The translations under genes were made by a program, and so were the position numbers. Under the pieces are notes generated by a model that was given only the letters and a program-made list of their open reading frames with translations, ran no database searches and was not told the origin of the DNA. 30,713 nt of DNA from an uncultured archaeon (GTDB lineage: Archaea; Asgardarchaeota; Thorarchaeia; Thorarchaeales; Thorarchaeaceae): positions 1 through 30,713 of the forward strand of contig CAZSWP010000044.1 in the NCBI GenBank assembly GCA_964610875.1, read 5' to 3'. Shown one piece after another: positions 1-26,651 of this stretch; the first letter of the stretch is position 1, and each line of letters begins with the position of its first letter.

Positions 1-110
1 GTGCAATCGATTCAGGTTGCGTGAAGGACCTTACCCTTTCCTCATGCTGTTGAGCGCCCTTTTCATTTTTCATATTTTTAGTCAGATGAGTGGAATTTAG
101 GTCTAGGATT
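1..110 (+). repeat. rRNA-tail repeat copy R1 (cut by window start)
   Basis: GTGCAATCG..GGTTGCGTGAAGGACCTTACCC..CTGTTGAGCGCC-T tract-TTAGTCAGATGAGTGGAA..TAGGTCTAG, shared with six other copies. Confidence 0.93.
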
Positions 111-209
111 TCTTCCTTAGTAGATATCCAACACTAGTTTCATGAGTTTGCATTCAATGTGCATCTTTATATCACTCAGAATTGAAAGATGTACTGAGGT
201 CTTGAGCCA

Positions 210-401
210 GTGACAGATAGAACAATATCAATCTCAGAGGAGTTCTATGGAATATTACAGAAGCTGAAGCTTCCTGGTGAAAATCTTGAAGATACTATTC
301 TCCGTTTATCTGGTTTGAGATCTCGAGGAGCGGATTTTGAAAAAGCACTCGATAAAGTCCTCACCGAGGATGCTGAGCTTCTTGAAAGATTGGCACAATG
401 A
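210..401 (+). CDS. Antitoxin (VapB/DUF217-like DNA-binding N-terminus) paired with Doc
   Basis: TISISEEFYGILQKLKLPGE..DTILRL N-terminus; C-terminal AELLERLA helix; directly upstream of Doc; TTTATAT box at ~165. Confidence 0.8.
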   Translation: MTDRTISISEEFYGILQKLKLPGENLEDTILRLSGLRSRGADFEKALDKVLTEDAELLERLAQ

Positions 402-424
402 ATGATATCCTCTGGTGAAACTAT

Positions 425-808
425 TTGAGATATTTGACCTTTGATGAAGTACTTACAATCCACAGGAAAATGATTGCTGTATTTGGTGGTGAGAGTGGTG
501 TTCTCTCTCAAGAAGGACTGGAGAACTGCTTAGCACTTCCAATGATGTCTGTATATGGGACAGAAACAAATCCTTCATTATGGGAAAAAGCAGCATCACT
601 ACTACACTGCCTTGTTACAAGACATCCCTTTGTTGATGGTAATAAAAGAACTTCATGGGCTGCTGCCAAAGTATTTCTACTGCTCAATGGTTTCAGACTG
701 TCTACAGAACACGATGATGGTGAACAAACTATTTTGAATGTGATTAGTGGAAAAATCAACAAAGATCAGCTAGCAGACTGGATTGAATCCCATTCTAACA
801 GAATTTAG
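425..808 (+). CDS. doc: Death-on-curing (Doc/Fic family) toxin
   Basis: HPFVDGNKRT Doc-type Fic motif; MRYLTFDEVLTIH start; GGTGA SD before TTG. Confidence 0.9.
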   Translation: MRYLTFDEVLTIHRKMIAVFGGESGVLSQEGLENCLALPMMSVYGTETNPSLWEKAASLLHCLVTRHPFVDGNKRTSWAAAKVFLLLNGFRLSTEHDDGEQTILNVISGKINKDQLADWIESHSNRI

Positions 809-832
809 TATATCCAATTCAGATCACCCGAC

Positions 833-906
833 GGACCTTACCCTTTCCTCATGCTGTTGAGCGCCCTTTCATTTTGTATTGTTTAGCTAGATTGAGTAGA
901 ATCTAG
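833..906 (+). repeat. rRNA-tail repeat copy R2 (5'-truncated)
   Basis: GGACCTTACCCTTTCCTCATGCTGTTGAGCGCCCTTT identical to R1, starting ~25 nt after doc stop. Confidence 0.92.
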
Positions 907-1073
907 AAAAGACCTCTCTTCCTCAAAGTCTTCAAGTTGAGTTTTCACAATCAAAATCATATCCTGACAGTTGATTTTCTCGTAAAACCTCTCTCTTGAT
1001 GATCGAGCTTGATTTAGCCAACACACAATGCAGCTTATATATCTACATATACATATATAGACAGTGATTCTCA

Positions 1074-1322
1074 ATGCCTTCAAAGACCATTTCTGTGACA
1101 CTGGATGTGTACAATCTCCTCAAGAAGATGCGACTCCCTGGAGAGAGTTTTGGAGATACGATTGCTCGTCTATGTAAGGGGAAGACATCGGAAGCGTTGT
1201 ATCTGTGGACACAAACCTCTGATGGTTGGACTGACCTGACAAAGGAGGAGTATCGCCTTCTTGACGAAACACTTCGCGATGTCCAAGCATCATTCCAAGA
1301 AGAACGAGTTGATTTGAGTTGA
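1074..1322 (+). CDS. vapB: VapB-family antitoxin (DUF217-like)
   Basis: KTISVTLDVYNLLKKMRLPGESFGDTIARL; overlaps start of PIN gene. Confidence 0.85.
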   Translation: MPSKTISVTLDVYNLLKKMRLPGESFGDTIARLCKGKTSEALYLWTQTSDGWTDLTKEEYRLLDETLRDVQASFQEERVDLS

Positions 1323-1726
1323 TATTTCTAGACACTACTTTCTTGGTGGATGTTCTACGGAAGGATGCAGGTGCACTATCATGGTTAGCGAAGACTGATG
1401 AAATTGCCCTCTATACCTCTGAGATCAATGTGTTTGAGCTCTATACAGGGCTATTTCGATTATCATCTAAGTCTGAATCTTTTCTACGAAAGCGAAGGCT
1501 GGAACTTGAGCAAGTTCTTACTCGGATGGAGGTTCTCCCATTTGAGAGATCAGCTGCCTTAGAATCTGGGAAGATACTGGCACAACTTCTAGCAAAAGGA
1601 AATCCTATTGGCTCAAGGGATGTGATGATTGCTGGAGTTTCCCTTGCAAATGGTATACAAAGAGTTCTAACACGAAATGTCAGGCATTTCAAGGTAATTC
1701 CTCGAATGGATGTAGAAACTTACTAG
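1319..1726 (+). CDS. vapC: VapC PIN-domain ribonuclease toxin
   Basis: IFLDTTFLVD..E..DVMIAG..LTRNVRHF PIN motifs. Confidence 0.92.
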   Translation: MIFLDTTFLVDVLRKDAGALSWLAKTDEIALYTSEINVFELYTGLFRLSSKSESFLRKRRLELEQVLTRMEVLPFERSAALESGKILAQLLAKGNPIGSRDVMIAGVSLANGIQRVLTRNVRHFKVIPRMDVETY

Positions 1727-1817
1727 ACAGAGGAATAGGATGCACGATTGTCTAAATTCGTCCGCGAAAATAGTTTCATTTTTTATGACTGGTATTATGG
1801 TCGATACTATGTGTTGT

Positions 1818-1933
1818 CTTTGAACGGGACAGTGTAATTGTTTCGATTGCGTGAAGGAGCTCATCCTTTTCTCATGCTGTTGAGCGCCCTTTCATTTTTC
1901 AGATTCACCTGATGAGTAGTAGCTAGGTTTCTA
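1818..1933 (+). repeat. rRNA-tail repeat copy R3 (diverged; may extend left to ~1790)
   Basis: GTGTAATTGTTTCGATTGCGTGAAGGAGCTCATCC..CTCATGCTGTTGAGCGCCCTTTCATTTTTC..GATGAGTAG..CTAGG. Confidence 0.88.
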
Positions 1934-2000
1934 ATCGAATCCATAGCATGTTCTAGTCACTTTCCAATGAAATTATAAGTAGTTATTAGCATTATAAGAT

Positions 2001-2198
2001 ATGATAGATATGGGAGAAACTACTACCATTCCTCTCTCTAAAACGACACGGGACCAATTGAAAAAATATGGGCGTAAAGGAGAAACCTATGACGAACTGA
2101 TACTCCGGCTTCTTGAGATAGCAGAACAGATGGAGTTTGTTGAAAGACAGAAACGCATTCTATCTGAAGAGGAGTTCGTTCCACTTGACCAAGTTTGA
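2001..2198 (+). CDS. Antitoxin of RelE toxin (start may be ATG 2010)
   Basis: TTIPLSKTTRDQLKKYGRKGETYDELILRL, acidic C-terminus, overlaps RelE gene. Confidence 0.8.
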   Translation: MIDMGETTTIPLSKTTRDQLKKYGRKGETYDELILRLLEIAEQMEFVERQKRILSEEEFVPLDQV

Positions 2199-2466
2199 AG
2201 TTTTCCTCTCTCAGACAACGGTTTCACAACTGAGCTTACTTGACCACAAACAAGTTAATCGAGTAAAGACTGCTCTTAGCGACCTTGCAATCAATCCCTT
2301 TCAAAAACGATCTGGAATTGACATCAAGAAATTGATGACCAAAGATGATCCTCCCCTGTTCAGACTACGCGTGGGGGATTATCGCGCAATCTATTTTGTA
2401 GTTAACCAAGAGGTAAGAGTTACAGAGATTCTCCACAGAAGTAAAGCATACAGATGGTTGGACTAG
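2185..2466 (+). CDS. relE: RelE/ParE-family toxin
   Basis: FRLRVGDYRAIY and EILHRSKAYR motifs; start moved to TTG 2185 behind GAGGAG SD. Confidence 0.88.
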   Translation: MTKFEVFLSQTTVSQLSLLDHKQVNRVKTALSDLAINPFQKRSGIDIKKLMTKDDPPLFRLRVGDYRAIYFVVNQEVRVTEILHRSKAYRWLD

Positions 2467-2524
2467 ATTCTAAATAATACACTTTAGAATCCAATGTATG
2501 TAGTTCTGTATAGAGCATTTCCAA

Positions 2525-2590
2525 CTCCACGGTTGAGCGCCTTTTCATATTTTAGTCAGGTGAGTGGAACCTAGGTCTACTGCCACTGTT
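2525..2590 (+). repeat. rRNA-tail repeat copy R4 (shortest)
   Basis: CTCCACGGTTGAGCGCCTTTTCATATTTTAGTCAGGTGAGTGGAACCTAGGTCTA. Confidence 0.9.
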
Positions 2591-2620
2591 TCCCCATGTT
2601 CTTCGGTGTTGATATGCACT

Positions 2621-2650
2621 GAGTTTATATGTACTCATATGCATATGTAT
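2621..2650 (+). promoter_or_regulatory. TATA box with overlapping palindromes (probable autorepression operator)
   Basis: GAGT-TTATATGT-ACTC and perfect palindrome CATATGCATATG (2636-2647) before ATG 2661. Confidence 0.55.
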
Positions 2651-2660
2651 ATTGATTATT

Positions 2661-2903
2661 ATGGCGAAGAATGTGGCATTGGCTGATGACGTCTACAGTG
2701 ACCTCAAGCGTCTAAAGCGTAAGGATGAGAGTTTCAGCGATGTGATTCGTAGATTGCTTCGGACGAGAGGTACGATTGCAGACCTTGCAGGGTCTGAAAC
2801 GCTTAGTTTAGAAGAATGGCTGAAGATGAAGAGACTCAAAGAAGAACAGGCAGAAACCGATGAGAAACGAGCGGATGTCCTTCTCTCACAACAAGAAGGG
2901 TGA
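2661..2903 (+). CDS. vapB: VapB-family antitoxin (DUF217-like)
   Basis: KNVALADDVYSDLKRLKRKDESFSDVIRRLL. Confidence 0.88.
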   Translation: MAKNVALADDVYSDLKRLKRKDESFSDVIRRLLRTRGTIADLAGSETLSLEEWLKMKRLKEEQAETDEKRADVLLSQQEG

Positions 2904-2911
2904 ATGTACTA

Positions 2912-3316
2912 ATGCCCATTTTTGATACGAGCTTTCTCATTGATCTTACTAGAGGCGACGAGGGAGCAGTAGCCATAGCAAAACAAGTTGACAGCGGGTC
3001 TGATTTCAAAGCAGTGTCAGTCGTGACAGTCCACGAGTACCTTAGAGGTGTGTTCTATCATCATGTTGGGAAGAAGTCTTTAGACAAGAAATTACGCAAA
3101 GCACTCACTGATTTAGCACATTTTGAACAGCTTGAATTCACGTCAACCATTGCTCGGGAAGCAGCTCTATTGGATGCAAATCTTTTCCGAAAGGGAAACA
3201 TGATTCCATATGCAGATGTAATAATCGCCGCAACAGCTATTCATCACAAGTCTTCTCTTGTTACAAGAGATACGCATTTTCAGTCCATAGGTGACCTTGA
3301 CATAATTGAGTATTAG
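2912..3316 (+). CDS. vapC: VapC PIN-domain toxin
   Basis: PIFDTSFLID..HE..DVIIAATA..LVTRDTHF; GGGTGA SD before ATG 2912. Confidence 0.92.
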   Translation: MPIFDTSFLIDLTRGDEGAVAIAKQVDSGSDFKAVSVVTVHEYLRGVFYHHVGKKSLDKKLRKALTDLAHFEQLEFTSTIAREAALLDANLFRKGNMIPYADVIIAATAIHHKSSLVTRDTHFQSIGDLDIIEY

Positions 3317-3322
3317 AGTGTT

Positions 3323-3402
3323 GAAGTGTAAGAAATACTTCGTAGCGGATGCTGCGGATGGAAGAAGACGAGAGTCATTCTCGCTTCCATCAATCACCTC
3401 CT
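3323..3402 (+). pseudogene. Decayed 16S rRNA 3'-terminal fragment
   Basis: GAAGT-GTAAGAA..TTCGTAGC-GGAT-GCTGCGGA-TGGA[insert]TCACCTCCT versus universal AAGTCGTAACAAGGTA-helix 45-TGGATCACCTCCT. Confidence 0.8.
3363..3393 (+). other. Putative 31-nt bulge-helix-bulge intron in the 16S fragment
   Basis: Central helix GATG(3357-60)/CATC(3388-91), bulges GA^A and AA^T, intron stem GAAG/CTTC plus CGAGA/TCTCG; ligation gives GGATGGATCACCTCCT. Confidence 0.75.
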
Positions 3403-3540
3403 AGGATCTCTACTTTTTAGAGGTAGAGCAGCTTGGTTCTGGCAATCCTCTGGATTACTGGAAGAGGTACAGGCCTTCGATGGGATAGTGCAATCGTACA
3501 GGTTGCGTGAAGGACCTTACCCCCCTCCACTGTTGAGCGC

Positions 3541-3557
3541 CCTTTTTCATTTTTCTT
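3541..3557 (+). terminator. Archaeal U-rich terminator-like tract (equivalent tract follows GTTGAGCG in every copy)
   Basis: CCTTTTTCATTTTTCTT. Confidence 0.55.
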
Positions 3558-3610
3558 TCATCATTTATCCACTAGACATAGAAATTGTTCTTTTAAAATT
3601 CATGTACAAC

Positions 3611-4771
3611 TCAATTGACAATCAATCCTTTTGGTCTTCTGATTTTTCGAATTGCAACAACAACTGCAATGATTATGAATCCCCCTCCAATAATCGATAG
3701 AAATAGAGGGTCTGTGGCACCTTGCCATAATCGTGTTCCAATAGAATTTCCCTGTTGTGTACGTAAAATCTTACCGTGATATCCAGAAGCCCACCCATGT
3801 GTTTCGTTTATGAAATCCACAGCAAGAAGTCTTGACAAACCAATATCGACTCCCTGCGCGTACCACGTATTTCCACCATCTGATGAATACATGATTGGTG
3901 GTTCAGATCCAATAATCCATCCATGTGACTCATCATAGAATTGAATGTCTGTGAGATACGCATCCCTGAACCCTGGGATTGGTGAACCACTCGGAATCGG
4001 AATTTCTTGCCAAGTCATATCATCACTTGTTTTTGCAAGCATATCATCTGCTATCGCCCATCCATGTAGAGAATCACTGTATTCTATTGCCCATCCTCCT
4101 TTGTCAAAGTTCTTTTCCCACGAGTATCCACCATCAGTTGACTGGTATATCCCATCAAAACCAATAGCATCCATGGCCTCATTAGAATGGAAGTATATTC
4201 TTCTCAGAGTATCATCAAATATCCATCCCTTGCACTTATTCCATGTCACACCTGAGTCATTTGTATTGAAGAGTATCTTATTTGTTGCAGCCCATCCGTG
4301 TGTTCCGTTAGAAAAAGCGATTGTGGAGAATAATGATTGAATATCATCAAATTCAACAACTGTCCAAGAAGACCCATAATCTTCCGAAAAAACCAGGTTT
4401 CCAAGAGATGCAATCCAAATAATATTCCCATCAGTAATAGTAATCTGATTGAACCAGTCTTCTGAATTTTCAAGCTGAATATTCCATGTATTTCCCCTAT
4501 CTGTGGTAGCAAGTATAATTCCATTACCAACTCCCTCCGATGATTGACCAACAGTCCATCCATGACTGGCATTGATGAAATCAATATCCCAAAGTATGCC
4601 TTCTGGGTATCCTGAATCTAATGATTCCCAGATATCCTCATTGTGATTTCCATTAGGTTGTGCTCTTCCGTAAGAAAGCAATAGCAAAGAGATGATTAGT
4701 ACGAGTATGAATAGTCTAGATAATCTACCTTTGTACTTGATACTTTTCGTATCTATTGCTATACTAATCAT
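3611..4771 (-). CDS. YCF48/BNR-repeat beta-propeller, secreted and C-terminally membrane anchored
   Basis: Repeated F.D..HGW and T.DGG.TW motifs; N-terminal hydrophobic signal; C-terminal TM helix and basic tail. Confidence 0.85.
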   Translation of the reverse strand: MISIAIDTKSIKYKGRLSRLFILVLIISLLLLSYGRAQPNGNHNEDIWESLDSGYPEGILWDIDFINASHGWTVGQSSEGVGNGIILATTDRGNTWNIQLENSEDWFNQITITDGNIIWIASLGNLVFSEDYGSSWTVVEFDDIQSLFSTIAFSNGTHGWAATNKILFNTNDSGVTWNKCKGWIFDDTLRRIYFHSNEAMDAIGFDGIYQSTDGGYSWEKNFDKGGWAIEYSDSLHGWAIADDMLAKTSDDMTWQEIPIPSGSPIPGFRDAYLTDIQFYDESHGWIIGSEPPIMYSSDGGNTWYAQGVDIGLSRLLAVDFINETHGWASGYHGKILRTQQGNSIGTRLWQGATDPLFLSIIGGGFIIIAVVVAIRKIRRPKGLIVN

Positions 4772-4806: not shown

Positions 4807-5907
4807 CTATTCAGGCAGTGGTGTTCCTCCCCCGCCGCCTCCACCTCCACCAGGAAGTGTCACATAGGTATAATCGCTTCCCAGATAGTGATTCGATGAA
4901 TCATATGCTTTAACCTTGACTCTCATTTGTACATAACCCGTAAGTAACGACCATGAAACATAGTAATCTCCACTTGTATATGGTGTGTAGTCAATTCCCA
5001 CATACATATCACTAGTCCAATATCCCGAACTAGTCTTGTATTTGACATAGACCTTGACATAATCCATAGCAGTATAGTGATTTACACGTACATAACCTGT
5101 GACACCATTTGACTCCCATGCATTATAGATGAGATTGGATGCAGGTATCGGGTCATTGCTATCCAGAGGATCATATCCCCAAGCTATTTCATTTCCATCA
5201 CTTATGATATCTTGGTCTGTACTCCATAGTAGCGGATTTGTTCCATATGCAAACTCGTCCGAGTCGGAAATAGCATCATCGTCGGTATCACTATCCAATG
5301 GATCAGTTCCGTGGATTAAGACTTCATTGGCATCTGATAAATCATCATTATCTGTATCCCAATCATTTGGATTTGTACCATATACGTATATCTCCAAATC
5401 ATCTGAGAGTCCTTCTCCATCTGTATCCGGTCCGCTTGTTAGCCAATCTGAAATATCATCATATGTTTCTTCGTTTTCAGGGTCATTTATCAGTAGTCCA
5501 TGTGATACATCATAGAATTGACGATTGGTTTCCGCATATGATAGATATGCTCTGGACTCACCTACGATAGGGTCACTGTATTCACCATGAATACTTAGCA
5601 ATAGGAGTCCCCATGCTGGGTCTATTCCCGCACCTGTATACCACCTAATTCCATCAGAATAAGAACTCGGATCATCATTTAAATTGTCAATGAGTTGAGA
5701 GTGAGGTGCAAGTGACCAAAAAACTGGACTTGGCCAAAGATTTCCATTATCCCCAATATAACCTCCAATTAATGACATTATAAGTGACCAAGAGTTTAAT
5801 GGATCAGCTAAGCATGTACCATCATTTGGAGTTCCCATTGTTATTACAGTACCAATGTCAATACGTGAAGACTCTAGTTGCGTGCTATGATCCATCAACA
5901 TTTGACG
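4807..5907 (-). pseudogene. C-terminal half of split alpha/beta-hydrolase with DxDxD Ca-binding repeats
   Basis: RQML..IGTVITMGTPNDGT, D.IV and H motifs, DTDxDxLSD..E...GT.P repeats; 5' end abuts the mobile element and joins in frame to 23804-24631. Confidence 0.88.
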
Positions 5908-6097
5908 GGTCGCGAACAGATACTAATAATCAGGACAAACCTTGACATTGTTGTGTAGGTGCTTATATAGGACCGGTAAGGATATTTTAGTGAGGGTGTC
6001 TTGACACACGATCTTACCCTCGCAAAGCCAGTCCCAGTACCGTTGTCTGGGAGGACAAAGCTTTGGTGTCCAGATCTGTCCAACTTACAATGAACGG
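5908..6097 (+). mobile_element. 190-bp non-autonomous IS607-like element, copy A
   Basis: Identical to the reverse complement of 24630-24819 except 2 nt; GG at both junctions; no terminal IR; right end TGTCCAGATC-TGTCCAACTT..GAACGG; left end has 10-bp spaced GACA motifs. Confidence 0.85.
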
Positions 6098-6150
6098 TTA
6101 GAACTGGTTTCATAAGATAATAACCAATCTATTAACGTCAAGACATTTAC

Positions 6151-7240: not shown

Positions 7241-8212
7241 CTAATTTGACGGAGGACCAGGTGTGATTTCCAGTTCCCTTACAAATTCTTTGTAACGATT
7301 ACGAACCGTCACTTCTGTTACGCCTGCAGCTGCTGCAATCTCTCTTTGTGTGGCACGATTCTCAGTTAGAATGGATGCAATATAGATGGCAGCGGCTGCA
7401 AGACCTCGCGGATCTCTTCCGGTCAACAGACGCCCATGTTCTTTAGCATCCTGAAGAATATTAAGAACCACATTCTGCATGTTACCACTCACTGATAATT
7501 GGGAGAGGATTTTTGGTACATAGCTCTTAGGATCAGGAATAGGCATTTTCAACTTCATTTTGCGAGCTAGAAGACGATAGTGTCGTCCAATCTTTTTCTT
7601 ACTAATTCTCGAATAATGTGCAATTTCCTCTAATGAACGAGGAATCTGTCGTAATCTGCATGCCGCATAAATTGCAGCTGCCACCATTGCCTCAATCGAC
7701 CTACTACGAATAAGCCGTTTGAGTATGGCTTTTCGATACAACATTGCTGCGAGTTCTTTTACACTCTTCTTCAACTCCATCTGAGACGCTAATCTATCCA
7801 TCTCAGATAATGCTTGAGCCAAGTTCCTTTCAGCAGAACTGTGTATACGGGTTCGTATCTGCCATTTTCTCAAACGATGAATCTCAGCACGTCGCTTCCC
7901 AGAGAGTTTTCTTCCTGATGAATCCCGATCACGCCAGTCTATACGTGTCGAGAGACCCTTGTCATGAATTGTATATCTTGTTGGTGCACCAGTTCTTGCT
8001 CGTGACCGCTTTTCTTCAGCAGTAAAGGCTCTCCATTCGGGACCCATATCGATACTGCGTTCGCTAACAACTAATCCACAGCTGGCACAAACCAGTTCAC
8101 CTGTTCTGGGTTTTCGTATAGCTTTTGTTCCAGAGCATTCGGAACATCTAAACTCTTCACTCTCTCTAGTACTTCTTTTTCGCTCTTTGGGATGGGTTGG
8201 TCCAGACTTCAT
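7241..8212 (-). CDS. tfb: Transcription initiation factor IIB (start uncertain, ORF open to 8281)
   Basis: Zn ribbon CSEC..GELVCASCG, GPEWRAF, two cyclin folds, GVTEVTVRNRYKE. Confidence 0.95.
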   Translation of the reverse strand: MKSGPTHPKERKRSTRESEEFRCSECSGTKAIRKPRTGELVCASCGLVVSERSIDMGPEWRAFTAEEKRSRARTGAPTRYTIHDKGLSTRIDWRDRDSSGRKLSGKRRAEIHRLRKWQIRTRIHSSAERNLAQALSEMDRLASQMELKKSVKELAAMLYRKAILKRLIRSRSIEAMVAAAIYAACRLRQIPRSLEEIAHYSRISKKKIGRHYRLLARKMKLKMPIPDPKSYVPKILSQLSVSGNMQNVVLNILQDAKEHGRLLTGRDPRGLAAAAIYIASILTENRATQREIAAAAGVTEVTVRNRYKEFVRELEITPGPPSN

Positions 8213-16060: not shown

Positions 16061-19000
16061 TTAACCTGATTGTCGTTTTCTCAATAGCATCACTGCCATA
16101 ACTAAAACAATGATGCCGCCTCCTGCACCTGCAACAATAATTATTGTACCCAGACCATCATCAGTTGGAATATCAGATGTTGTGGTGGTTTCAGTTGTGT
16201 CATCTGTTGTTTCAGTCGTGGTGTCAGTTGTTGTATCAGTTGTAGTGGTTGTGCTTGTAGTTGTGGTGTCAGATGATGTGACAGTAACTATGACTGAGTC
16301 GCTTGAAAATAGTCCACACTCTGAATAAACAATAAGAGTGAAGTTGTATATACCAACATCAAGACCATCAAGCGATACTACAATGTTTGAACCGTCCCAT
16401 TCACCTGAGGCAGATACACTTCCATTGAGCAATATCTCATAGGAGTCCGGATATGAATCAGAAACTATCCAAGTGATTGATTCTCCTTCGGAACCTTCCG
16501 TAAAGGATACATCATCTGGATGGTTGATCTCAGGTGTACTCAGAGCCATTACCGTGAGGAATACTGTATCAGAGGAGCAATTATTACTATCAGAGAATAC
16601 AACAAGGGTCAGATTATATACACCCACTGCAAAGTCATCCACATCTATTTCAATGTCAGTGCCATCCCATTCTCCAGAGTTTTCCAGTGTTCCATTGACA
16701 TAGAACTCAAAACTATTGGGATATTGAGAAGATACGTCCCAAGACACCAGGTTACCATTAGACCCATACCAATACCAGAAATCTTCAGGTTGGTCAATCT
16801 CAGGAATGGTTCCGGTTTTCACCGTAAGGAGGACTGTATCATATGTCTGGTTGTTGCTTTGAGAATACACAAAAAGTGTTAGATAATGGAGACCGACTGA
16901 GAGACCGTCTACATCTATCTCGATATCAGTCCCATCCCATGGACCTGAGGCCTCTATTGTTCCGTTGATATAGAACTCGAAACTATCAGGGTATGTGCAA
17001 GAAGCATTCCAGACTACGGAGTGTCCATCGGTGCTATACCAATACCAGAAATCTTCAGGTTGGTCAATCTCAGGAATGCTTCTGGCTCTCACTGTCATGA
17101 AAACGGTATCTGATGCGTTATTACCACATCTAGAATACACAATAATGGTCACATTGTAGACCCCAACATCGTAACCATCCATAATTCCTTCAACACTGCT
17201 TCCGTCCCAACCATATGGACCATAGTAAGTATCATTGAGATAGACTTCCATAAAATCGGGGTCCGAAGATGCAGCATCCCACATGATAGTATTGCCTTTA
17301 TCACCATACCAGTACCAGAAATCAGCAGGATGGTCTATTGTAGGAGTCGTGATTTCAATGACTTCAATTACAACAGCGTCATGATTTGATGATGCGAAAT
17401 ATGATGTCAAGTATATTGTATAACAATAATAACCAGGAGAAAGACCATTCAGATTCACTACTACGGGACCACCGGTCCATAAACCTCCAAATTGAAACGA
17501 TTCATTCATGTAAACCTGATAGGACCGGATGTAGCTTGAAGGACTTGTCCAAGTTATAGAATTGCCAACACTTCCTTCATTAAATGTTTGATTGGCAGGA
17601 TTACTGATGACAATAGTGTAACCCGGGAGACTATTTGGAAAACCATCAATAGATCCACCTGTGCCAGGAACTTCGTATATTCCGCCACCATAGTAGTCAG
17701 ACCAAGTGTTCCCATACATGACATCATCATCCCAAAAGTTGCCAGCAGAATCATCCTGAGCGTTATTGTCGGAATTCCCACCAAACTCGTTGAGATAGAA
17801 TAAATTGTTTGTACTTGATTGGACCAGAACACCAAGTGAGTTATTGAAGAAACCACTGTTGGTAACATTACAGTTGTTTGCTCTATACAAGTTCAAACCA
17901 TGATCACAATCAATGACAAGAGTGTCATTAATGGCAACACCATCTGACCCGTAGAGATACAGACCTGTTTTAGTACTATTGATAACATTCAAACCCTCAA
18001 TCTGGAGATCATGCGAGTTCTCTGCGTATATGCTATACTTTGAACAATTCCATACTTCTGAATTAAGGATCACTGAATCTTCAGATTGATACAGATAGAG
18101 ACCATAGTATTCGGAGAAGGATGAATTCACATTGGATAACGATGCATTGTGTGATTGAGTCAAATATAATCCAGCACGTGCACTCTCCGTGACTGTGAAG
18201 TTTTCAATGGAGCAATGAGTGCTGTTGTAACTTCTCAACCCATCGTACACATCACTCAGAGAATAGTTTGCCACTGTTACATTGTAGCAAGATGCAAGGT
18301 ATAACGGAATTGAAACCTGTGCCATCTCATGTCCCTTAATTGTACTATTCTCACAGTATAGAAGGAAAATTTGCCCATAGTCCGAAGCATCAATCTGAAG
18401 TTCATGTTGATTCTTGAAGTATCCTATGGGTAACCCACCAACCGTATTGCCAGTCATTGTATGGTTATAATAAGCGATATTGTCATTGTTGATGATAATA
18501 ATACCCGTACTGCTGAATGTGTTGGAGTAAATCTCCAAATCCCGAGAAGAGAACAACCGTATACACGCAGAGTTACCTTGGACCATATTAGCTTCAAGAA
18601 TGCCACTACTGATACTGGACAATGAGATTCCTACATCACTAGCAACAATTTCATTATCTATTATACTGAAATTCTGACATCTGTATAGTTGAATCGCATC
18701 TTCAATATCATCGACCAATATGTTATCTTCAAGACGGATATTATCAGACCAAGAAGCGTAAATCGCATTGTCAGACATTTTTGACATAGTGTTGTTTGTT
18801 ACGATACAGTCGTATGAATCTTGGATCGATATCCCATCATGTGTGATGTTCAAGGCCTCGTTTTTGTTAATGATAGAATTATCAGAATATTGCAAATGGA
18901 ATCCTGTACCATACCCTTCAGCATAGCAATCGGTGATATTCATTGATGTCGAATGGTCACCAGAGACTGCTACTCCATTATAGCTCTCATAATAGAATTG

Positions 19001-21106
19001 ACTACTTATCACATTACAATCTTCGGAATAGAAGAAGAGTAAACCTTTGCGGCACCCATCAATCAGTAAAGAAGAGACAGAGCAGTTGCTTGAGAAAGCC
19101 ATTACGTAGCCCACAATTGATTTTGTTAAACTACCACCAGTAGTCGATACATTCTCAGAGTCTACGATAAATACCTGTCCAGCAGAGGTCAAATCATAGT
19201 TAACATCGGATTCATTCACTAGATAGTAAATCGACTTGCCTAATACTGTATTATCCAGTGTAATCTCGTGAAACCAATATTCACGTAACTCCCCTTCAAC
19301 ATAAAGGCCGCCAGAATCCAGTGTGTTGTTATCCAGATAGCAGGCAGTGGATTGGTCCAAGTAGATTGCGGCATCATCCATATTCGTTATCTGATTATCT
19401 TTGATTGTTACGTCACTGCTATCTTCAACATAGATTCCTTCATAGTTAGTTTCGGGGCTATAGTTGTCATCTATCGTGTTCCGAATAAGTGTGACATTCG
19501 TGCTTGATTCCACGTAGATAGCATGACCACGATTGAACTGAAAAGATGAGTCTGAAACGGTGACATTGGTGACATCCACCATTCCGATTGACCCGGACCT
19601 ATAGAGTTCAAGATTATCGAATTCAAAGAAATTGCAGGAGCTTAGTGCAATACCTCCAGCATCTGAAATACCAGATAGTTTCACAAGTCCGTAATAACAT
19701 TCCCTGAAATAGAATTCTCGGCCCGAATTGCCTTCAGCAATAGTCCACCAAATTTGAGTGTGATTTGAGTAGTTGATCTCGTATCCTTCATATCCAAAGG
19801 TCTGTGCGTTGTCATATGCTCTACATTCCCAAATGAAAGTATCATTATCAAAACTGAATGCGAAGCCAGAGTGTTCATTGAATTCAGAAAAGCAAAACCT
19901 TACCTGGGATTCATAGCATTCATGTATGTAGAAGCCATCGCCCTCATTCGCGGATGAGTTGCAGTAGTCCAATTCTGTGCGATTGCTTTGCCAGACGCTA
20001 TATCCATCGTCCCAATTATCATAAGCAATGCAATTATTGAACTTCGTATCGAGTGTACCACGGTCATAGTATCCGTAGTTGTTGTAGAACGCAATATTAT
20101 CACGCACAATGGTATTGTTGGAATAGAGAATACCAATTCCTGCGATATCATTATTGTTAGAAACAGTATTATTCTGAACAGTACAATCTAGTGAGTCCTC
20201 TATTAGGATTCCATAATCGTTGTTTGTTTTACCTAACGAGCTATATACAGTATTGTTCCTAAGAATCACCTCTGCGGATTCCGAAACTGTGATTCCGTTT
20301 ATCAATTGGTTTGCAACACTATTATGACTGATATTACATTGACTACAGCTTAGAATCTGAATACAGTCTTTACCATCATTCCCATCAAATGTATTATACT
20401 CAGCAACCACGTCTATGGATGTGTATAGATACAACATACTCCTGAACAGAATATTATCTATGGCATTTGTTTCATTTGAATTGATGATCTGGATACGTGA
20501 CCATGTTACATTGTTACCTATGATATGCGAATAATTACACCCCGTTAATTTGATATCAGGAATACCAGTCCAATAAGAACCCTGGACTGTGTTTCCGGTA
20601 AGGTTAGCATATGGACAGTTAGTCAGATAGATAGAAGAGGCTCTAATATCGTAAGAATAGGCATCAATAATTGTAAGATTTGAAGAACCAGTCGCTTCAA
20701 CTATTTTTGAAACGTTATAGAAGATGCATCCTTCGATGGTGACATGAGATGCATTATCGAGAACTATCGCATCAGCTCCAAAAGGTTCACCTGTTACAGT
20801 TCTAAAGAAACAGTCCCTTATTACACAATATGCATCAGTATCTGTTATGTTGATGAGTGCGTCAGCACCAGTTATGTTCCGACCCTCGAAGGTATACGGC
20901 TGTTCAGCAGTGCCTAATCCACTGAAGTTCGTGACAAAGTCATCATTACCAACAACTGTGAATGTTGGATGCTCCACATAGGAAATGAGTTTCTCATCTA
21001 CAGGTGCAGTATCCAATTCTACCTGAGAGAAATCAGATAGAACGGGTATCACCAAAAGAAATAGAATAGAGAGTATAATTAAGGGTCTTTTCATAGCAAA
21101 TCCCAA
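16061..21106 (-). CDS. 1681-aa cell-surface protein: parallel beta-helix (NosD-like) repeats, ~5 Ig-like 90-aa repeats, Thr-rich linker, C-terminal TM anchor
   Basis: Signal peptide; many GI.L..S.N..I..N repeats; PEIDQPEDFWYWY..W repeats with 270-bp period; poly-Thr; TM helix plus RKR. Confidence 0.9.
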   Translation of the reverse strand: MGFAMKRPLIILSILFLLVIPVLSDFSQVELDTAPVDEKLISYVEHPTFTVVGNDDFVTNFSGLGTAEQPYTFEGRNITGADALINITDTDAYCVIRDCFFRTVTGEPFGADAIVLDNASHVTIEGCIFYNVSKIVEATGSSNLTIIDAYSYDIRASSIYLTNCPYANLTGNTVQGSYWTGIPDIKLTGCNYSHIIGNNVTWSRIQIINSNETNAIDNILFRSMLYLYTSIDVVAEYNTFDGNDGKDCIQILSCSQCNISHNSVANQLINGITVSESAEVILRNNTVYSSLGKTNNDYGILIEDSLDCTVQNNTVSNNNDIAGIGILYSNNTIVRDNIAFYNNYGYYDRGTLDTKFNNCIAYDNWDDGYSVWQSNRTELDYCNSSANEGDGFYIHECYESQVRFCFSEFNEHSGFAFSFDNDTFIWECRAYDNAQTFGYEGYEINYSNHTQIWWTIAEGNSGREFYFRECYYGLVKLSGISDAGGIALSSCNFFEFDNLELYRSGSIGMVDVTNVTVSDSSFQFNRGHAIYVESSTNVTLIRNTIDDNYSPETNYEGIYVEDSSDVTIKDNQITNMDDAAIYLDQSTACYLDNNTLDSGGLYVEGELREYWFHEITLDNTVLGKSIYYLVNESDVNYDLTSAGQVFIVDSENVSTTGGSLTKSIVGYVMAFSSNCSVSSLLIDGCRKGLLFFYSEDCNVISSQFYYESYNGVAVSGDHSTSMNITDCYAEGYGTGFHLQYSDNSIINKNEALNITHDGISIQDSYDCIVTNNTMSKMSDNAIYASWSDNIRLEDNILVDDIEDAIQLYRCQNFSIIDNEIVASDVGISLSSISSGILEANMVQGNSACIRLFSSRDLEIYSNTFSSTGIIIINNDNIAYYNHTMTGNTVGGLPIGYFKNQHELQIDASDYGQIFLLYCENSTIKGHEMAQVSIPLYLASCYNVTVANYSLSDVYDGLRSYNSTHCSIENFTVTESARAGLYLTQSHNASLSNVNSSFSEYYGLYLYQSEDSVILNSEVWNCSKYSIYAENSHDLQIEGLNVINSTKTGLYLYGSDGVAINDTLVIDCDHGLNLYRANNCNVTNSGFFNNSLGVLVQSSTNNLFYLNEFGGNSDNNAQDDSAGNFWDDDVMYGNTWSDYYGGGIYEVPGTGGSIDGFPNSLPGYTIVISNPANQTFNEGSVGNSITWTSPSSYIRSYQVYMNESFQFGGLWTGGPVVVNLNGLSPGYYCYTIYLTSYFASSNHDAVVIEVIEITTPTIDHPADFWYWYGDKGNTIMWDAASSDPDFMEVYLNDTYYGPYGWDGSSVEGIMDGYDVGVYNVTIIVYSRCGNNASDTVFMTVRARSIPEIDQPEDFWYWYSTDGHSVVWNASCTYPDSFEFYINGTIEASGPWDGTDIEIDVDGLSVGLHYLTLFVYSQSNNQTYDTVLLTVKTGTIPEIDQPEDFWYWYGSNGNLVSWDVSSQYPNSFEFYVNGTLENSGEWDGTDIEIDVDDFAVGVYNLTLVVFSDSNNCSSDTVFLTVMALSTPEINHPDDVSFTEGSEGESITWIVSDSYPDSYEILLNGSVSASGEWDGSNIVVSLDGLDVGIYNFTLIVYSECGLFSSDSVIVTVTSSDTTTTSTTTTTDTTTDTTTETTDDTTETTTTSDIPTDDGLGTIIIVAGAGGGIIVLVMAVMLLRKRQSG

Positions 21107-21673
21107 TCCGGCGTCTATCTACAAAAAGAGAGATTTTATTGCTTTCTACTGTAGTGGCGCTGATCAAACGTTAGGAAGGGAAAAACATCATCATTATTTA
21201 AATTATTTTATTAAAAATCCGAATTATGATAGTCTTATTTGAATTATTATCAGTTGATAGCATAGAATTCTGGAATGCCTTTTTGGTTCCAAAAACTCTC
21301 AGAGCTTACGTATCAGTGCAACCCAGCTATTTTATTGTTGTGTCTAGAAGAAATTTTGGGAGTTTTCAAAGAACGCTTAGATTCGTTTGTCACTAAATAC
21401 TTTGGAACAGACGAGAAGACATCATCGAGAGTAGCCGATTTTGATTCACTCTTGCAATAACTCCAAATTGTTCTCAAGAGAATCAGAATACAATGGTAGC
21501 ATACCTAGAATCCTCTCAACTAAATTAAATAATGAAAGAACGCTCAACAGTGGAAGGGGTAAGGTCCTTCACGCAACCTGTACGATTGCACTATCCTATC
21601 AAAGCCGGTACCCCTTTCACAGTCCCAAAGGACTGCGAAACAAGCTGCTTCTACCTCTAGAGATAGAAATCTT

Positions 21674-21756
21674 AGGAGGTGATTGATGGAAGATGAGAAT
21701 GACTCTCGACCTCTTCCATCCACATCTTCCGCTACGGATACCTCATCAGTCAACTT
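21674..21756 (-). pseudogene. Decayed 16S rRNA 3'-terminal fragment
   Basis: AAGTTG..TGATGAGGTATCCGTAGC-GGAA-GATGTGGATGGA[insert]TCACCTCCT. Confidence 0.82.
21683..21714 (-). other. Putative 32-nt bulge-helix-bulge intron in the 16S fragment
   Basis: GTG-GATG-GA^A-GAGG..CTTC-CATC-AA^T-CAC: outer stem GTG/CAC, 4-bp helix, two 3-nt bulges. Confidence 0.75.
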
Positions 21757-21834
21757 GATACTCAGTCCATGACTTTATATTGCCTGAATTAGTACTATAT
21801 GTCAGAGTCTAAACTGAAAATCAGGTGATGGTCA

Positions 21835-22089
21835 ATGGGTCTGAAAGCAGAAGGACAAATTGGAAAGAAGCATACAATATATCTCCCAAAGGCGGTTGTT
21901 GATGAAGCAAATCTTGAGGTAGGCATGAAAATCATAATCACAGTTGAGGGAAACAAAATCATCATCGAACCAGTACCCGACCCTATTTCCCTCGCTATTC
22001 ACGGAAAGAAGTTCGCATCAATGACATTAGAACAGATTGAGGCAATTAGTCTTGAAGAACAATCAAAGCATGCAGAAGATTCTTCTTGA
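21835..22089 (+). CDS. AbrB/MazE/SpoVT-family antitoxin
   Basis: GQIGKKHTIYLPKAV..L.VG..I...VEG.KIIIEP. Confidence 0.88.
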   Translation: MGLKAEGQIGKKHTIYLPKAVVDEANLEVGMKIIITVEGNKIIIEPVPDPISLAIHGKKFASMTLEQIEAISLEEQSKHAEDSS

Positions 22090-22504
22090 TACCTCTTTCT
22101 TGCTTCCGACACTTGGAGTTGAAGTAGAGGCAGAGGTGATAAGAACTCTTTCAAAGATCAATCTTGAGAAAATCCATCTATTCTATTCCAATTGGAGCCT
22201 GCTTGAAAGTAGCTGGATTGCAATACAACAAATCAAACAAGGAACATATCAAGCACCTCTGTTCAGGAAAGGACTCCTAAGTATAACAAAAACAGAGGTC
22301 TATCAACATATTCAGGCAAGTCCAGATGACTATCTGAATGCCCTTGATTTCTACCAAAAAGGGCATCCGGATATGATTGACAATATGTTGTATGTGACAG
22401 CCCTAAGAAAGCAATATCGATTTCTCACAATAGATAGTGAATTTATGGAATTTATTTCCGAGAACGATATCGAGGACATTGTAGTCACTCCAAAAGATTT
22501 CTGA
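22070..22504 (+). CDS. vapC: PIN-domain toxin
   Basis: ILLDTSFLLP..SLLE..DMIDNMLY..FLTID; overlaps antitoxin. Confidence 0.88.
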   Translation: MQKILLDTSFLLPTLGVEVEAEVIRTLSKINLEKIHLFYSNWSLLESSWIAIQQIKQGTYQAPLFRKGLLSITKTEVYQHIQASPDDYLNALDFYQKGHPDMIDNMLYVTALRKQYRFLTIDSEFMEFISENDIEDIVVTPKDF

Positions 22505-22531
22505 TTGACCTTCTTTTCAGCCTCCTAGTAA

Positions 22532-22714
22532 ACTTCATCAAACGTCAAATATCTCAACGAGTTTCACCAGAGGACATCATTCATTGTGCCAATCTTATAA
22601 GAAGCTCAGTATCCTCGGTGAGGACCTTATCGATTGCGATTTCAAAATCCACTCCCCGATATCTCAAACCAGATAAACGGAGAATCGTATCTTCAAGATT
22701 TCCAGCAGGAAACC
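22532..22714 (-). pseudogene. Relic of the antitoxin-doc operon (homologous to ~268-450)
   Basis: Reverse complement aligns at roughly 85-90% by eye; covers the antitoxin 3' part, spacer and first ~9 doc codons. Confidence 0.9.
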
Positions 22715-22749
22715 TATGGAGATTCAAAGAACCAATTGAGATTCACGAA

Positions 22750-23205
22750 TTAACCAATTTGAAAAGATCCAAAGAAGCACTCAAGAAATTCAATTCTATC
22801 CAAGAGCTGTTTTTTCCTAATAGCATCAACTATTTCCTTTTCCCTACGAGCAAAGATGGCTTTTCCTTTGAATATTCGCGCAGCAACAATCGAAAAACAA
22901 TCAGACAAAGCAATAGGGACATCGCATTTGATTTTAGAAGCTTCCATCCATAGTGCTTTAGAAGGAACTATTGCAACTGCGGAAGAATGAATCAGGTTCT
23001 GTGTCTTTTCCCAAGCTTGCTTCCAAGTTGAATTTCGACAGAGAATGTAGTTTAATTCACACAGGGCAATTTCAGTACATGCATAATGACCATGCCTTTT
23101 GATAATACCTCTAGATAGTTCTGCAGCTGAGGCTTCATTAAGTGCCAATCCGATTAGTACCCCTGCGTCTAACACAAAGAGAGGATTATTCTTTTCTTTC
23201 ATCAA
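22750..23205 (-). CDS. vapC: PIN-domain toxin
   Basis: FVLDAGVLI..ALCELNYILCR..IALSDCF. Confidence 0.85.
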   Translation of the reverse strand: MMKEKNNPLFVLDAGVLIGLALNEASAAELSRGIIKRHGHYACTEIALCELNYILCRNSTWKQAWEKTQNLIHSSAVAIVPSKALWMEASKIKCDVPIALSDCFSIVAARIFKGKAIFARREKEIVDAIRKKQLLDRIEFLECFFGSFQIG

Positions 23206-23434
23206 GAGCTCGCTCCTGAATCAGGTCATGATATGCTGATTCAAAATCCACTCCAGGAATAGGAGTTGTGAACTTGTCCCAGGCTTCTTGATCAATTTGC
23301 TCCTGCATGTAGTTCTTAATCAGAAACTGGATCACAGAGTCAAAGTCAACTCTACGTTGCGTCCTTTTCTGAAGCTCACCTGCAATCTGAAGTAACTTCT
23401 TTCGAGTGTCCTCTTTAATCGAGATGGTGGTCAT
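23186..23434 (-). CDS. VapB-type antitoxin
   Basis: MTTISIKEDTRKKL..DFDSVIQFL; overlaps PIN gene. Confidence 0.8.
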   Translation of the reverse strand: MTTISIKEDTRKKLLQIAGELQKRTQRRVDFDSVIQFLIKNYMQEQIDQEAWDKFTTPIPGVDFESAYHDLIQERALDERKE

Positions 23435-23470
23435 GGTTTTTCATCATTCATATACACACTTTCTATAATA

Positions 23471-23495
23471 AACACAACAATTGTGTTAAACACAA
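23471..23495. promoter_or_regulatory. Triple alternating heptamer, probable operator of the TA operon
   Basis: AACACAA-caa-TTGTGTT-a-AACACAA upstream of 23434. Confidence 0.5.
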
Positions 23496-23527
23496 CTAAT
23501 ATGGTTTTAGCTGTTCATTTCTTGAAG

Positions 23528-23615
23528 AAAAATCCTATACTCGGATTCCACTCATCTGACTAAGAATATGAAAAGGCGCTCAACAGTGGAGGGAGGGTAA
23601 GGTCCTTCACGCAAC
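23528..23615 (-). repeat. rRNA-tail repeat copy R7 (5'-truncated)
   Basis: Reverse complement GTTGCGTGAAGGACCTTACCCTCCCTCCACTGTTGAGCGCCTTTTCATATTCTTAGTCAGATGAGTGGAA. Confidence 0.92.
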
Positions 23616-23803: not shown

Positions 23804-24631
23804 ATGACCAAAAAAAGTAGAACACTTACTATCATAGTATGTCTATTGTTTTTTCAATCGGTTTGTTTTAGTTTCATGACTGATACTCATGAGTATCCTG
23901 CAATATGGGTTGTTGAAATTGGGGAAATAGACTCGAATACGGAACTGGCAATAGATACTACACTAAATCAGATTCAGAAATATGAGTTACTAGTGAAAGT
24001 TATCGATTTTTCAAAGATAAACAGAGTATCTAAGGGAAACATTGTTGTACTAGTTGGTCATGGTGCACCTGAAGGTGTTCAAATTCATGACGAAACAGTA
24101 AATTGGGATGTATTATATCAAGGATTATTGGAAATTGAACCTTCTAGAGCAATAGTTTTAGCTTGTTATGCACCCTCAGTCCCTGAGAAATCAATATTCG
24201 GTTTTAATGGTGTTGTTGATGCTGTAGCAGGAGGGCTGTTAGCAACATGGCTCATGTCAGAAGCTTTTGATGAACCTGTTATCAAGGACATTCCTTTTGG
24301 AGAGATAATCGAAGCTCAAAGGAACATGCTTCATCCGCTAGCGAGAATACTGTATTTTGTGCACAGCTATTATGGCAGCACAGCGGATTTCGCGGATTTG
24401 ATACAATCTCTATTTGTAGAGGGTGATATGGGCTCTGAATATTCAACCTATCAAACTTTTTCATATTACTCGGCTTACGGTGTATCTGATGATGATCCTG
24501 ATGCAATAAACATACTTCATTATACAACCAGCATTGAAGATTATGGAGATGATTTGTATGACGAATTGAGTCAATATCCTTCAGGAACCCAGATTAATTT
24601 TGTAGCTCATAGTATGGGAGGAATTATTACC
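23804..24631 (+). pseudogene. N-terminal half of split secreted alpha/beta-hydrolase
   Basis: Signal peptide; LYFVHSY; ends at nucleophile elbow FVAHSMGGIIT where the mobile element begins. Confidence 0.88.
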
Positions 24632-24819
24632 GTTCATTGTAAGTTGGACAGATCTGGACACCAAAGCTTTGTCCTCCCAGAGGACGGTACTGGGACTGGC
24701 TTTGCGAGGGTAAGATCGTGTGTCAAGACACCCTCACTAAAATATCCTTACCGGTCCTATATAAGCACCTACACAACAATGTCAAGGTTTGTCCTGATTA
24801 TTAGTATCTGTTCGCGACC
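24630..24819 (-). mobile_element. 190-bp IS607-like element, copy B (inverted relative to A)
   Basis: CC-GTTCATTGTAAG..CTGTTCGCGA-CC. Confidence 0.85.
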
Positions 24820-24851
24820 CTTTTATATACATAAACCTCCCATAATTGCAA

Positions 24852-25706: not shown

Positions 25707-26651
25707 TTACGGCATCAAAGAGATATTCAGACCCTTGACCATGTCTTTGTAGCGATTTCGTACGGTCACTTCTGTAACGTTTGCAGCATCTGCAATTTCT
25801 CGTTGGGTTCTTCTATCATCTTCAATAATACCAGCTATATAGATTGCCGCAGCTGCTATACCACTGGGATCTTTTCCTGCAGTCAAACCTTTACCTCTAG
25901 CTTCAGTAATAATCTCTGCAGCTCGGGTCACAGTTCTTCCAGACAACTTAAGATCGGATGAAATCCTGGGAAGGAATCCTTTCGCTGAAGGCAGTGGAAC
26001 ATGAATATTGAGATGCTGTTGAATCATTCTAACACATTTACCAATCTGCCGTCTGTCTATCTTGGCTTCCTTTGCCACCTCATCAAGCTGTCGAGGTCGT
26101 TTATGTATTCGACAGGACAGATAGAGTGATGCTGACACCATTCCATCAATACTTCTACCACGTACAAGACGCTTATCCAAAACTTTTCTGTACACCAAAG
26201 CACCTGTTTCCACGGTTTCTCGTGATATGCCTAATTGTGAAGCTAGTCGTTCAATCTCGTTCATAGCAATCTGAAGATTTCTCTGCTTGGAACCATGAGC
26301 CCAACTTCTTCTCTGCCATTTTCTCATTCGATAGAGCTGCGCTCTTCGCGATCCACCAATTGACCTTCCGGATGCATCTCTATTTGCTCTGCTTATTCGT
26401 GTGGCTAGACCCTTGTCAGCAATAGTGTATCTTGTAGGAGCTCCTGTTCGCTCTCGGTTGTTCCGTTCTTCAGCAGTAAAAGCCCTCCATTCAGGCCCGC
26501 TGTCAATGATTCCACTTGACATCACAAAGCCACATGAAGTGCATACGCGTTCTCCACGTGACCTATCCCAATGTAGTTCTTTGGAACCGCACACTGTGCA
26601 ACTAAGTGTTTCTTCTTTCTCGCGACCGGCTTTTCTGGTAGTCTCTGTCAT
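25707..26651 (-). CDS. tfb: Transcription initiation factor IIB, second paralogue
   Basis: CTVC..GERVCTSCG, GPEWRAF, GKDP, VTEVTVRNRYK. Confidence 0.95.
   Translation of the reverse strand: MTETTRKAGREKEETLSCTVCGSKELHWDRSRGERVCTSCGFVMSSGIIDSGPEWRAFTAEERNNRERTGAPTRYTIADKGLATRISRANRDASGRSIGGSRRAQLYRMRKWQRRSWAHGSKQRNLQIAMNEIERLASQLGISRETVETGALVYRKVLDKRLVRGRSIDGMVSASLYLSCRIHKRPRQLDEVAKEAKIDRRQIGKCVRMIQQHLNIHVPLPSAKGFLPRISSDLKLSGRTVTRAAEIITEARGKGLTAGKDPSGIAAAAIYIAGIIEDDRRTQREIADAANVTEVTVRNRYKDMVKGLNISLMP

Follow-up and report, generated by a model that had tools for sequence, protein, structure and literature searches.

Why do the last bases of a 16S rRNA gene, interrupted by some 30 nt immediately before the anti-Shine-Dalgarno (anti-SD) sequence, stand behind a toxin-antitoxin module, and is the interruption an intron? 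The question is raised by the window analysed here, the whole stretch of 30,713 nt, which is one contig of a Thorarchaeota MAG (124 contigs, 95% complete). The initial annotation of this DNA proposed a minimal bulge-helix-bulge (BHB) intron that separates the anti-SD from the body of the 16S rRNA.

The putative mini-intron motif in the window

Inspection of the sequence located the motif at 3354-3402 on the plus strand (copy 1) and at 21674-21723 on the minus strand (copy 2). A pattern built on the conserved ends of the insert matched twice in the window, compared with 0.00 matches expected from 100 dinucleotide-preserving shuffles. The features of the two copies are:

3338..3359, plus strand: helix-45-like segment of copy 1, found by alignment; the loop reads GGAT, not the invariant GGAA, and the 5' strand is altered
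3357..3362, plus strand: exon-1-like end GATGGA of copy 1 (GATG, 5' strand of the central helix, then GA, bases one and two of the 5' bulge)
3357-3360 and 3388-3391, plus strand: central helix of copy 1, GATG/CATC, read from the sequence
3361-3363 and 3392-3394, plus strand: bulges of copy 1, GAA and AAT, read from the sequence
3364-3387, plus strand: inner hairpin of copy 1 (24 nt), stem end GAGA/TCTC, loop GTCAT, read from the sequence
3363..3393, plus strand: putative mini-intron of copy 1, 31 nt, made up of one bulge base, the inner hairpin, CATC and two bulge bases
3394..3402, plus strand: anti-SD TCACCTCCT of copy 1, exon-2-like, read from the sequence
3403..3570, plus strand: 16S trailer of copy 1, with a T-rich end
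within 21674..21739, minus strand: tail of copy 2 with a helix-45-like segment that has one mismatch, found by alignment and sequence
21714-21683, minus strand: putative mini-intron of copy 2, 32 nt, laid out as in copy 1
21682-21674, minus strand: anti-SD of copy 2
21505..21673, minus strand: 16S trailer of copy 2

The helix, bulges and intron stem that the initial annotation described are all present in both copies. Cuts after the second base of each bulge take 31 nt out of copy 1 and join GGATGGA to TCACCTCCT, and the excision of 31 or 32 nt that had been claimed for the two copies does reproduce the canonical 16S end. A third long copy is located on another contig of the same genome (C63:12646-12838, minus strand). 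In this copy GATA/TATC replaces GATG/CATC, a double change by which the pairing is kept.

Orphan tails of a 16S gene

In the window no 16S body was found upstream of the insert, and the copies are decaying orphans. Rfam searches of the window, which comprises the whole contig, revealed no rRNA at either gathering or permissive thresholds and no other family at the site; a tRNA scan returned zero tRNAs. Copy 1 is preceded by a PIN-domain gene, the end of which lies 22 nt upstream. The decay is most evident in helix 45, which contains mismatches in all three long copies and several changes in the C63 copy. The loop of copy 1 reads GGAT, in contrast to GGAA in all 34 other aligned sequences.

A BLAST search of the region against the genome identified a family of repeats spread over several contigs, in many cases at their ends. 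The three long copies consist of helix 45, the insert, the anti-SD and a trailer of about 170 nt, and some nine shorter copies contain the trailer core only, the whole 16S part being missing. Since the trailer pairs with the 5' leader in the real 16S loci of relatives, the core of the repeat amounts to one side of the 16S processing stem, the 3' strand. The pattern searches demanded conserved ends, and the conservation of the anti-SD among the orphans is therefore in part a matter of ascertainment. A reading of the site on the reverse strand, where the complement of the anti-SD forms a perfect Shine-Dalgarno sequence followed by ATG, was rejected: the copies differ in length by one base and hence in frame, and the frames stop after about 25-28 codons.

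The homology of the long copies begins near position 1499/1500, a further intron site at the base of helix 45 (see below). Together with the lack of a 16S gene in the assembly, this boundary would suit a split 16S rRNA, the body of which is encoded separately and for which the long copies serve as working 3' exons. Such an arrangement is extremely improbable, as the three copies differ from one another and from the family consensus at invariant positions (GGAT, the helix-45 mismatches, GATA), and relatives that possess the same orphans also possess complete, contiguous 16S genes.

The insert in working 16S genes of relatives

Several complete 16S genes of the lineage are interrupted between GGATGGA and TCACCTCCT, and others are clean. 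The parental 16S gene with an ORF-less intron that the initial annotation postulated thus exists in relatives; the organism's own 16S gene is absent from its assembly. An insert of 30-33 nt interrupts the complete 16S of at least 13 of 86 family genomes, distributed over 7 genera, when a bona fide 16S context is defined by the h44-h45 junction sequence in front of the insert. An insert-bearing copy of any context is present in 23 of the 86 genomes and an uninterrupted junction in 28, counts that refer to non-independent samples from one family. Complete 16S genes with the insert occur in L009, L011 and L012 of the same family; the junction is straight in L004, L005, L006 and L010 and in L003 of the same order. 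On metagenome contigs, 24 of 37 further 16S 3' ends contain the insert. All 37 contigs carry a trailer except L118, which ends 6 bases into the anti-SD, and they therefore represent DNA or precursor forms.

L075, a Thorarchaeote from a different family, and L018, a Heimdallarchaeote, possess the insert as well. There the 16S has GCTG in place of GATG, and the 3' end of the insert reads CAGC or CAGT to match. Removal of the insert joins GGATGGA to TCACCTCC, which is identical to the intron-less 16S of the same family. The insertion site, which we take to be A1531/U1532 in E. coli numbering, was counted from the 3' end of the 16S. Behind an identical 75-nt segment of h44, all four combinations of presence and absence of the inserts at 1499/1500 and 1531 were observed (L127, L131, L140, L143), which indicates that the inserts are optional for the mature RNA.

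Matches of the pattern in bacteria (Acidimicrobiia, Verrucomicrobia and others) were rejected, since they arise from a second TCACCTCC in the spacer, from assembly duplications or from chance matches in coding DNA. In L014, L021 and about 35 other loci of Acidimicrobiia/Poriferisodalis, TCACCTCC appears again in the spacer 19 nt past the normal 16S end. There the second TCACCTCC is conserved and forms a hairpin with the anti-SD; it contains no insert.

Structure and covariation

The 25 distinct inserts in 16S context are all 30-33 nt long, and in each of them the central helix forms four of its four pairs. The helix occurs in the variants GATG/CATC, GATG/CATT, GCTG/CAGC and GCTG/CAGT, which include a double compensatory change from A-U to C-G and a change from G-C to G-U. 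The 5' bulge comprises 3 nt, GAA or GAT in all sequences, and in 6 of the 25 inserts it cannot be removed by a slip of the register. In the bulged register the inner helix has at least 4 closing pairs in 24 of 25 inserts. In an alignment of 35 sequences the inner helix shows changes on both sides at all 10 pairs and 88.9% of cells paired, and for the bulged structure as a whole the values are 87.8% of cells paired and 11 pairs changed on both sides; its score is never matched by shuffles, and slid registers all remain below 58%. RNAalifold, without a supplied structure, returned a helix of 4-5 bp followed by a 3-nt 5' bulge. A continuous hairpin of 9 bp, which fits the main clade, was rejected in view of its three distinguishing pairs, which show no compensatory change and are broken in divergent sequences.

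The outer stem G(C/T)G/CAC of the initial annotation could not be maintained. In copy 1, GCG/CAC has a C-A mismatch, and of the two window copies only copy 2 (GTG/CAC) is fully paired. Of the 33 distinct sequences compared, 32 have an open middle pair, and the two remaining pairs are invariant. The canonical hBHBh' form with an outer stem is unsupported by these 33 distinct sequences, and the motif accordingly falls into the relaxed HBh' class only. What stands of the proposed BHB is the central helix, the 5' bulge and the inner helix, all supported by covariation; the canonical form is lost. In the bulged fold, the remaining 6-bp stub of helix 45, which directly abuts the central helix, could stack in place of the outer helix. 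The competition between the BHB and helix 45, another point of the initial annotation, is real in that the motif can form only when helix 45 opens at its lowest 3 bp. In five real 16S contexts, the fold with intact helix 45 is more stable than the BHB fold by 2.2-5.7 kcal/mol.

Sister inserts at the decoding site and in the actin gene

The same 16S genes also carry inserts of identical geometry, 29-30 nt long, at about 1386 and at 1499/1500, near the decoding site. Their inner helices differ wholly in sequence between species and yet keep 9-10 pairs. A retained hairpin beside the decoding adenosines is not credible. These mini-inserts were noted in L009, L011, L012, L005, L077, L083 and L136. 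There is likely an extra site just upstream, at about 1375, in L083 and L136, and another in L010.

The actin gene of the genome under study (C13:33731-34864, minus strand, locus L155) contains a 30-nt insert with an in-frame TAA. It is built of a CCAA/GTGG helix, AAA and TAA bulges, and an inner helix that closes at its first 6 pairs. Deletion of this insert according to the bulge rule restores the conserved C-terminus of actin. As the actin gene carries a module of the same geometry, the module is not confined to stable RNAs.

Proposed splicing of the insert

In the mechanism proposed, GAUG of the pre-rRNA, composed of the last bases of helix 45 and G1529, would pair with CAUC at the 3' end of the intron. 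The resulting 4-bp helix, flanked by a 3-nt bulge and the intron hairpin of 9-10 bp, would constitute a BHB motif of the relaxed HBh' type. A splicing endonuclease of the heterotetramer type would cut after the second base of each bulge, and RtcB would then ligate the 16S body to the end that bears the anti-SD, such that the junction of the spliced RNA would read GGAUGGA-UCACCUCC. The genome encodes one RtcB and two EndA paralogs (tRNA_int_endo, at C12:30518-30772 and C3:125936-126193), the open frames of which measure 193 and 210 aa. Asgard EndA is reported to be an (alpha-beta)2 enzyme, with an L1 loop that permits relaxed motifs (PMC5829648).

The energy ranking of the two folds lends itself to a different explanation, according to which the insert is a small expansion hairpin retained in mature 16S between helix 45 and the anti-SD, and no intron at all. 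In the minimum-energy fold helix 45 is intact, the 4-bp helix does not form and the only addition is a hairpin; the canonical outer helix of a BHB is missing; and at the peripheral 3' tail of the 16S an extra hairpin would be tolerated more easily than at the decoding site. However, such a hairpin would have no need of an insert 3' end that pairs with helix 45. This pairing, useless to a retained hairpin, is perfect in 25 of 25 inserts and covaries. Moreover, the cuts of the bulge rule give back the universal sequence exactly and without a scar, presence and absence of the insert vary behind identical flanking rRNA, and the same 30-nt architecture recurs at the decoding site and, with a stop codon, in the actin gene, places where retention would not be viable. 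Expansion of the mature rRNA is therefore unlikely. Based on the scarless restoration, the covarying pairing with helix 45, the sister modules, the optional presence of the insert, and the EndA paralogs and RtcB encoded in the genome, we infer that the insert is an ORF-less mini-intron that would be removed by cleavage and ligation. The window sites themselves probably duplicate the 3' tail of a Thorarchaeota 16S gene; orphaned and in slow decay, they preserve a mini-intron of working genes, in which it is presumably spliced.

Toxin-antitoxin rows and the origin of the orphans

In most cases tail and repeat copies have the orientation of the toxin-antitoxin modules with which they alternate; one cassette runs opposite to its own repeat. 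In the window the row and its repeats are arranged as follows:

1..110, plus strand: short repeat (trailer core only) at the contig start
210..3316, plus strand: toxin-antitoxin row with repeats between the modules (Pfam scan)
210-808, plus strand: VapB-like and Fic/Doc (Pfam)
817..906, plus strand: short repeat (trailer core), 3' of the VapB-like/Fic-Doc module
1074-1726, plus strand: VapB and PIN (Pfam)
1826..1907, plus strand: short repeat (trailer core), 3' of the VapB/PIN module
2137-2466, plus strand: ParE (Pfam)
2525..2593, plus strand: remnant of a partial repeat, located between ParE and the VapB/PIN module that follows
2652-3316, plus strand: VapB and PIN, second module (Pfam)
23530..23615, minus strand: short repeat (trailer core), upstream of the minus-strand PIN module

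Modules of about 1 kb (VapBC, Fic/Doc, ParE, MazE-like) split by copies of the 16S trailer thus occupy window positions 1-3554 and 21505-23615. Such rows are also present on contigs C63, C111, C68, C78 and C122 of this genome (G000), and the contigs break at the repeats. One VapB/PIN module together with its long tail is duplicated on C63 with 89% identity. Similar rows were seen in relatives, for instance in L052, where five copies are spaced at about 1 kb, and in L113, where the modules are HicAB/VapBC.

The position of the tails directly 3' of toxin-antitoxin genes, mostly in the same orientation, could mean that they are functional RNA modules of the cassettes and that the hairpin is kept for that role, possibly as a 3' UTR processing or termination signal derived from pre-rRNA or as a decoy for toxins directed at the 3' end of the 16S. 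The T-rich end of the trailer, the double change by which the C63 copy keeps its central-helix pairing, and the similar rows in many relatives are consistent with a role of this kind. Against it speaks the decay of helix 45 and its invariant loop in the window copies, as well as the inner helix, which pairs less well in several orphans than in the 16S-context copies. The short copies without the entire 16S part show that this part is not needed at every junction, and the inverted cassette does not share the orientation of its repeat. We regard a function within the cassettes as quite improbable.

A short conserved repeat, the trailer core, closes each small toxin-antitoxin module, a trait shared with integrons. 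An integron was nevertheless ruled out, as no IntI-type recombinase is located nearby. A Pfam scan of 30 window ORFs gave no match to a recombinase family, and the sole Phage_integrase (tyrosine recombinase) match of the genome lies on contig C52, away from the rows. The orphan tails most likely arose from repeated events at the 16S end in which modules were inserted or recombined; given that the only recombinase is the one on C52 and none is near the rows, this origin is a conjecture.

A BNR/YCF48-like repeat gene follows directly after the tail of copy 1 on the opposite strand (window 3611-4771, minus strand). Genes of this kind, with 38-44% identity, likewise follow complete 16S genes in two related lineages, L113 (2214-3617, minus strand) and L132 (764-1621, minus strand). 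The shared neighbour suggests that copy 1 may occupy the ancestral position of the 16S end.

Other features of the window were noted in passing. An inverted repeat of 208 nt (96%) is located at 5905-6114 and 24613-24825, and its first 57-60 nt recur at the contig end (30654-30713); it overlaps an ORF of 72 aa and the 3' end of a hydrolase-like ORF of 377 aa. The ORF of 1681 aa at 16061-21106 (minus strand) contains a 270-nt tandem duplication at 16551-17090 with 71% identity. Two TFIIB paralogs are encoded on the 30-kb contig (7241-8281 and 25707-26651, both minus strand), which have short DNA stretches in common (8012-8053 and 26466-26507).

Orphan tails and the intron state of the resident 16S gene

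The intron state of the orphans can differ from that of the resident gene. In G049 and G061 the complete 16S gene lacks the 1531 insert, and an insert-bearing orphan tail lies downstream on the same strand, at a distance of 5.8 kb and 2.8 kb, respectively; a HicAB, VapBC or HNH endonuclease gene is situated between the 16S gene and the orphan tail. In G061 (L114 1952-2500, minus strand) the HNH endonuclease gene ends directly at the start of the intron-bearing tail. G055 has an intron-less resident 16S and intron-bearing orphans on another contig, and in G008 the orphans are without insert. Owing to these mismatches, orphan tails cannot be simple copies of the neighbouring gene end. The orphans of one genome contain intron variants identical to the resident 16S intron of a congeneric species.

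These observations prompt a proposal of low probability, that intron-bearing tails may be a vehicle by which mini-introns move in and out of 16S genes through recombination between repeat and resident gene, with a swap of the intron state at the DNA level, and that the introns may persist as a shield against a nuclease. Such a nuclease would be sequence-specific for the uninterrupted junction. The proposal draws on the intron-bearing orphans downstream of intron-less 16S genes, the variants shared within a genus, the occurrence of all four intron states on identical rRNA, and the HNH gene that adjoins the G061 orphan tail. Guide-like copies of intron-less 16S junctions were found neither in the genome (at up to 2 mismatches) nor, among the loci examined, outside 16S contexts.

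Relation to known introns and integrated elements

Small hairpin BHB introns of less than 50 nt are known from the 16S genes of Thermoproteales, Desulfurococcales and Aigarchaeota, where they occupy 13 loci from 374 to 1391 (PMC4496867). The initial annotation was not familiar with a 16S intron at the present site, and 1531 is indeed not among these 13 published loci (PMC4496867). A full-text literature search, which covered mainly titles and abstracts, returned no report of a 16S intron at 1531 or of 16S mini-introns in Asgard archaea. With 1531 outside the published loci and none reported in Asgard archaea, an element of a known kind appears at a new site and in a new lineage. Like the 16S introns described by Jay and Inskeep (2015), the Asgard insert is free of ORFs, tens of bases long, situated in a conserved part of the 16S, patchily distributed among close relatives, and presumed to be cut by the splicing endonuclease. 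Unlike them, it is hosted by Asgard archaea (Thorarchaeota and one Heimdallarchaeote) at site 1531, borrows the end of helix 45 for its central helix, lacks the outer helix and leaves a 3' exon that amounts to only a dozen or so bases in the mature RNA.

Non-canonical tRNA introns with relaxed HBh' motifs are cut by splicing endonucleases of the (alpha-beta)2 or epsilon2 type (PMC5829648, PMC3239211). Common to them and the insert are a 4-bp helix that pairs the end of exon 1 with the 3' end of the intron, a bulge of 3 nt, an inner helix within the intron, and cleavage sites, predicted in the present case, behind the second bulge base. They differ in the host RNA, here 16S rRNA. BHB introns also occur in archaeal mRNAs, namely in cbf5 of Crenarchaeota (PMC2738675). 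They resemble the 30-nt module of the actin gene, the removal of which is needed for the conserved C-terminus; this likeness concerns the sister element, not the 16S insert.

Elements integrated at the 3' ends of tRNA, tmRNA and rRNA genes, which leave a partial copy of the gene at their distal end, are likewise known, among them mobile elements right after the single 16S gene of a Heimdallarchaeum (PMC8813620). As in integration or tandem accretion, direct, 5'-truncated 3' ends of a stable RNA bracket accessory modules here (e.g. in G049 and G061). In contrast to integrated elements, the modules are only about 1 kb in size and contain no integrase, and no recombinase is found nearby. A single-crossover model does not predict the order of the copies, since in the window it is the distal copy that is longest.

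Significance

The 1531 insert, if spliced, would be the 3'-most intron in any 16S rRNA to our knowledge. The anti-SD would then reach the ribosome only after endonuclease cleavage and RtcB ligation. Shine-Dalgarno sites are in use in this genome: SD-like motifs precede 17% of the long ORF starts compared with 4% of control windows, with a peak at -14 to -10. That unligated rRNA might give rise to subunits without an anti-SD is pure speculation. Since the base of helix 45 cannot form in the splicing fold, a fixed order between splicing and the late maturation of the small subunit would be required.

The orphan copies mark 16S gene ends in Thorarchaeaceae as recombination hot spots that break assemblies. 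In practical terms, the inserts fall within or close to sites commonly targeted by 16S primers and probes, and on the end of the gene that annotation relies on. Together with its sisters at the decoding site and in the actin gene, the 1531 insert points to a uniform family of protein-spliced micro-introns of about 30 nt in Asgard archaea, a family of relevance to the debates on the origin of introns.
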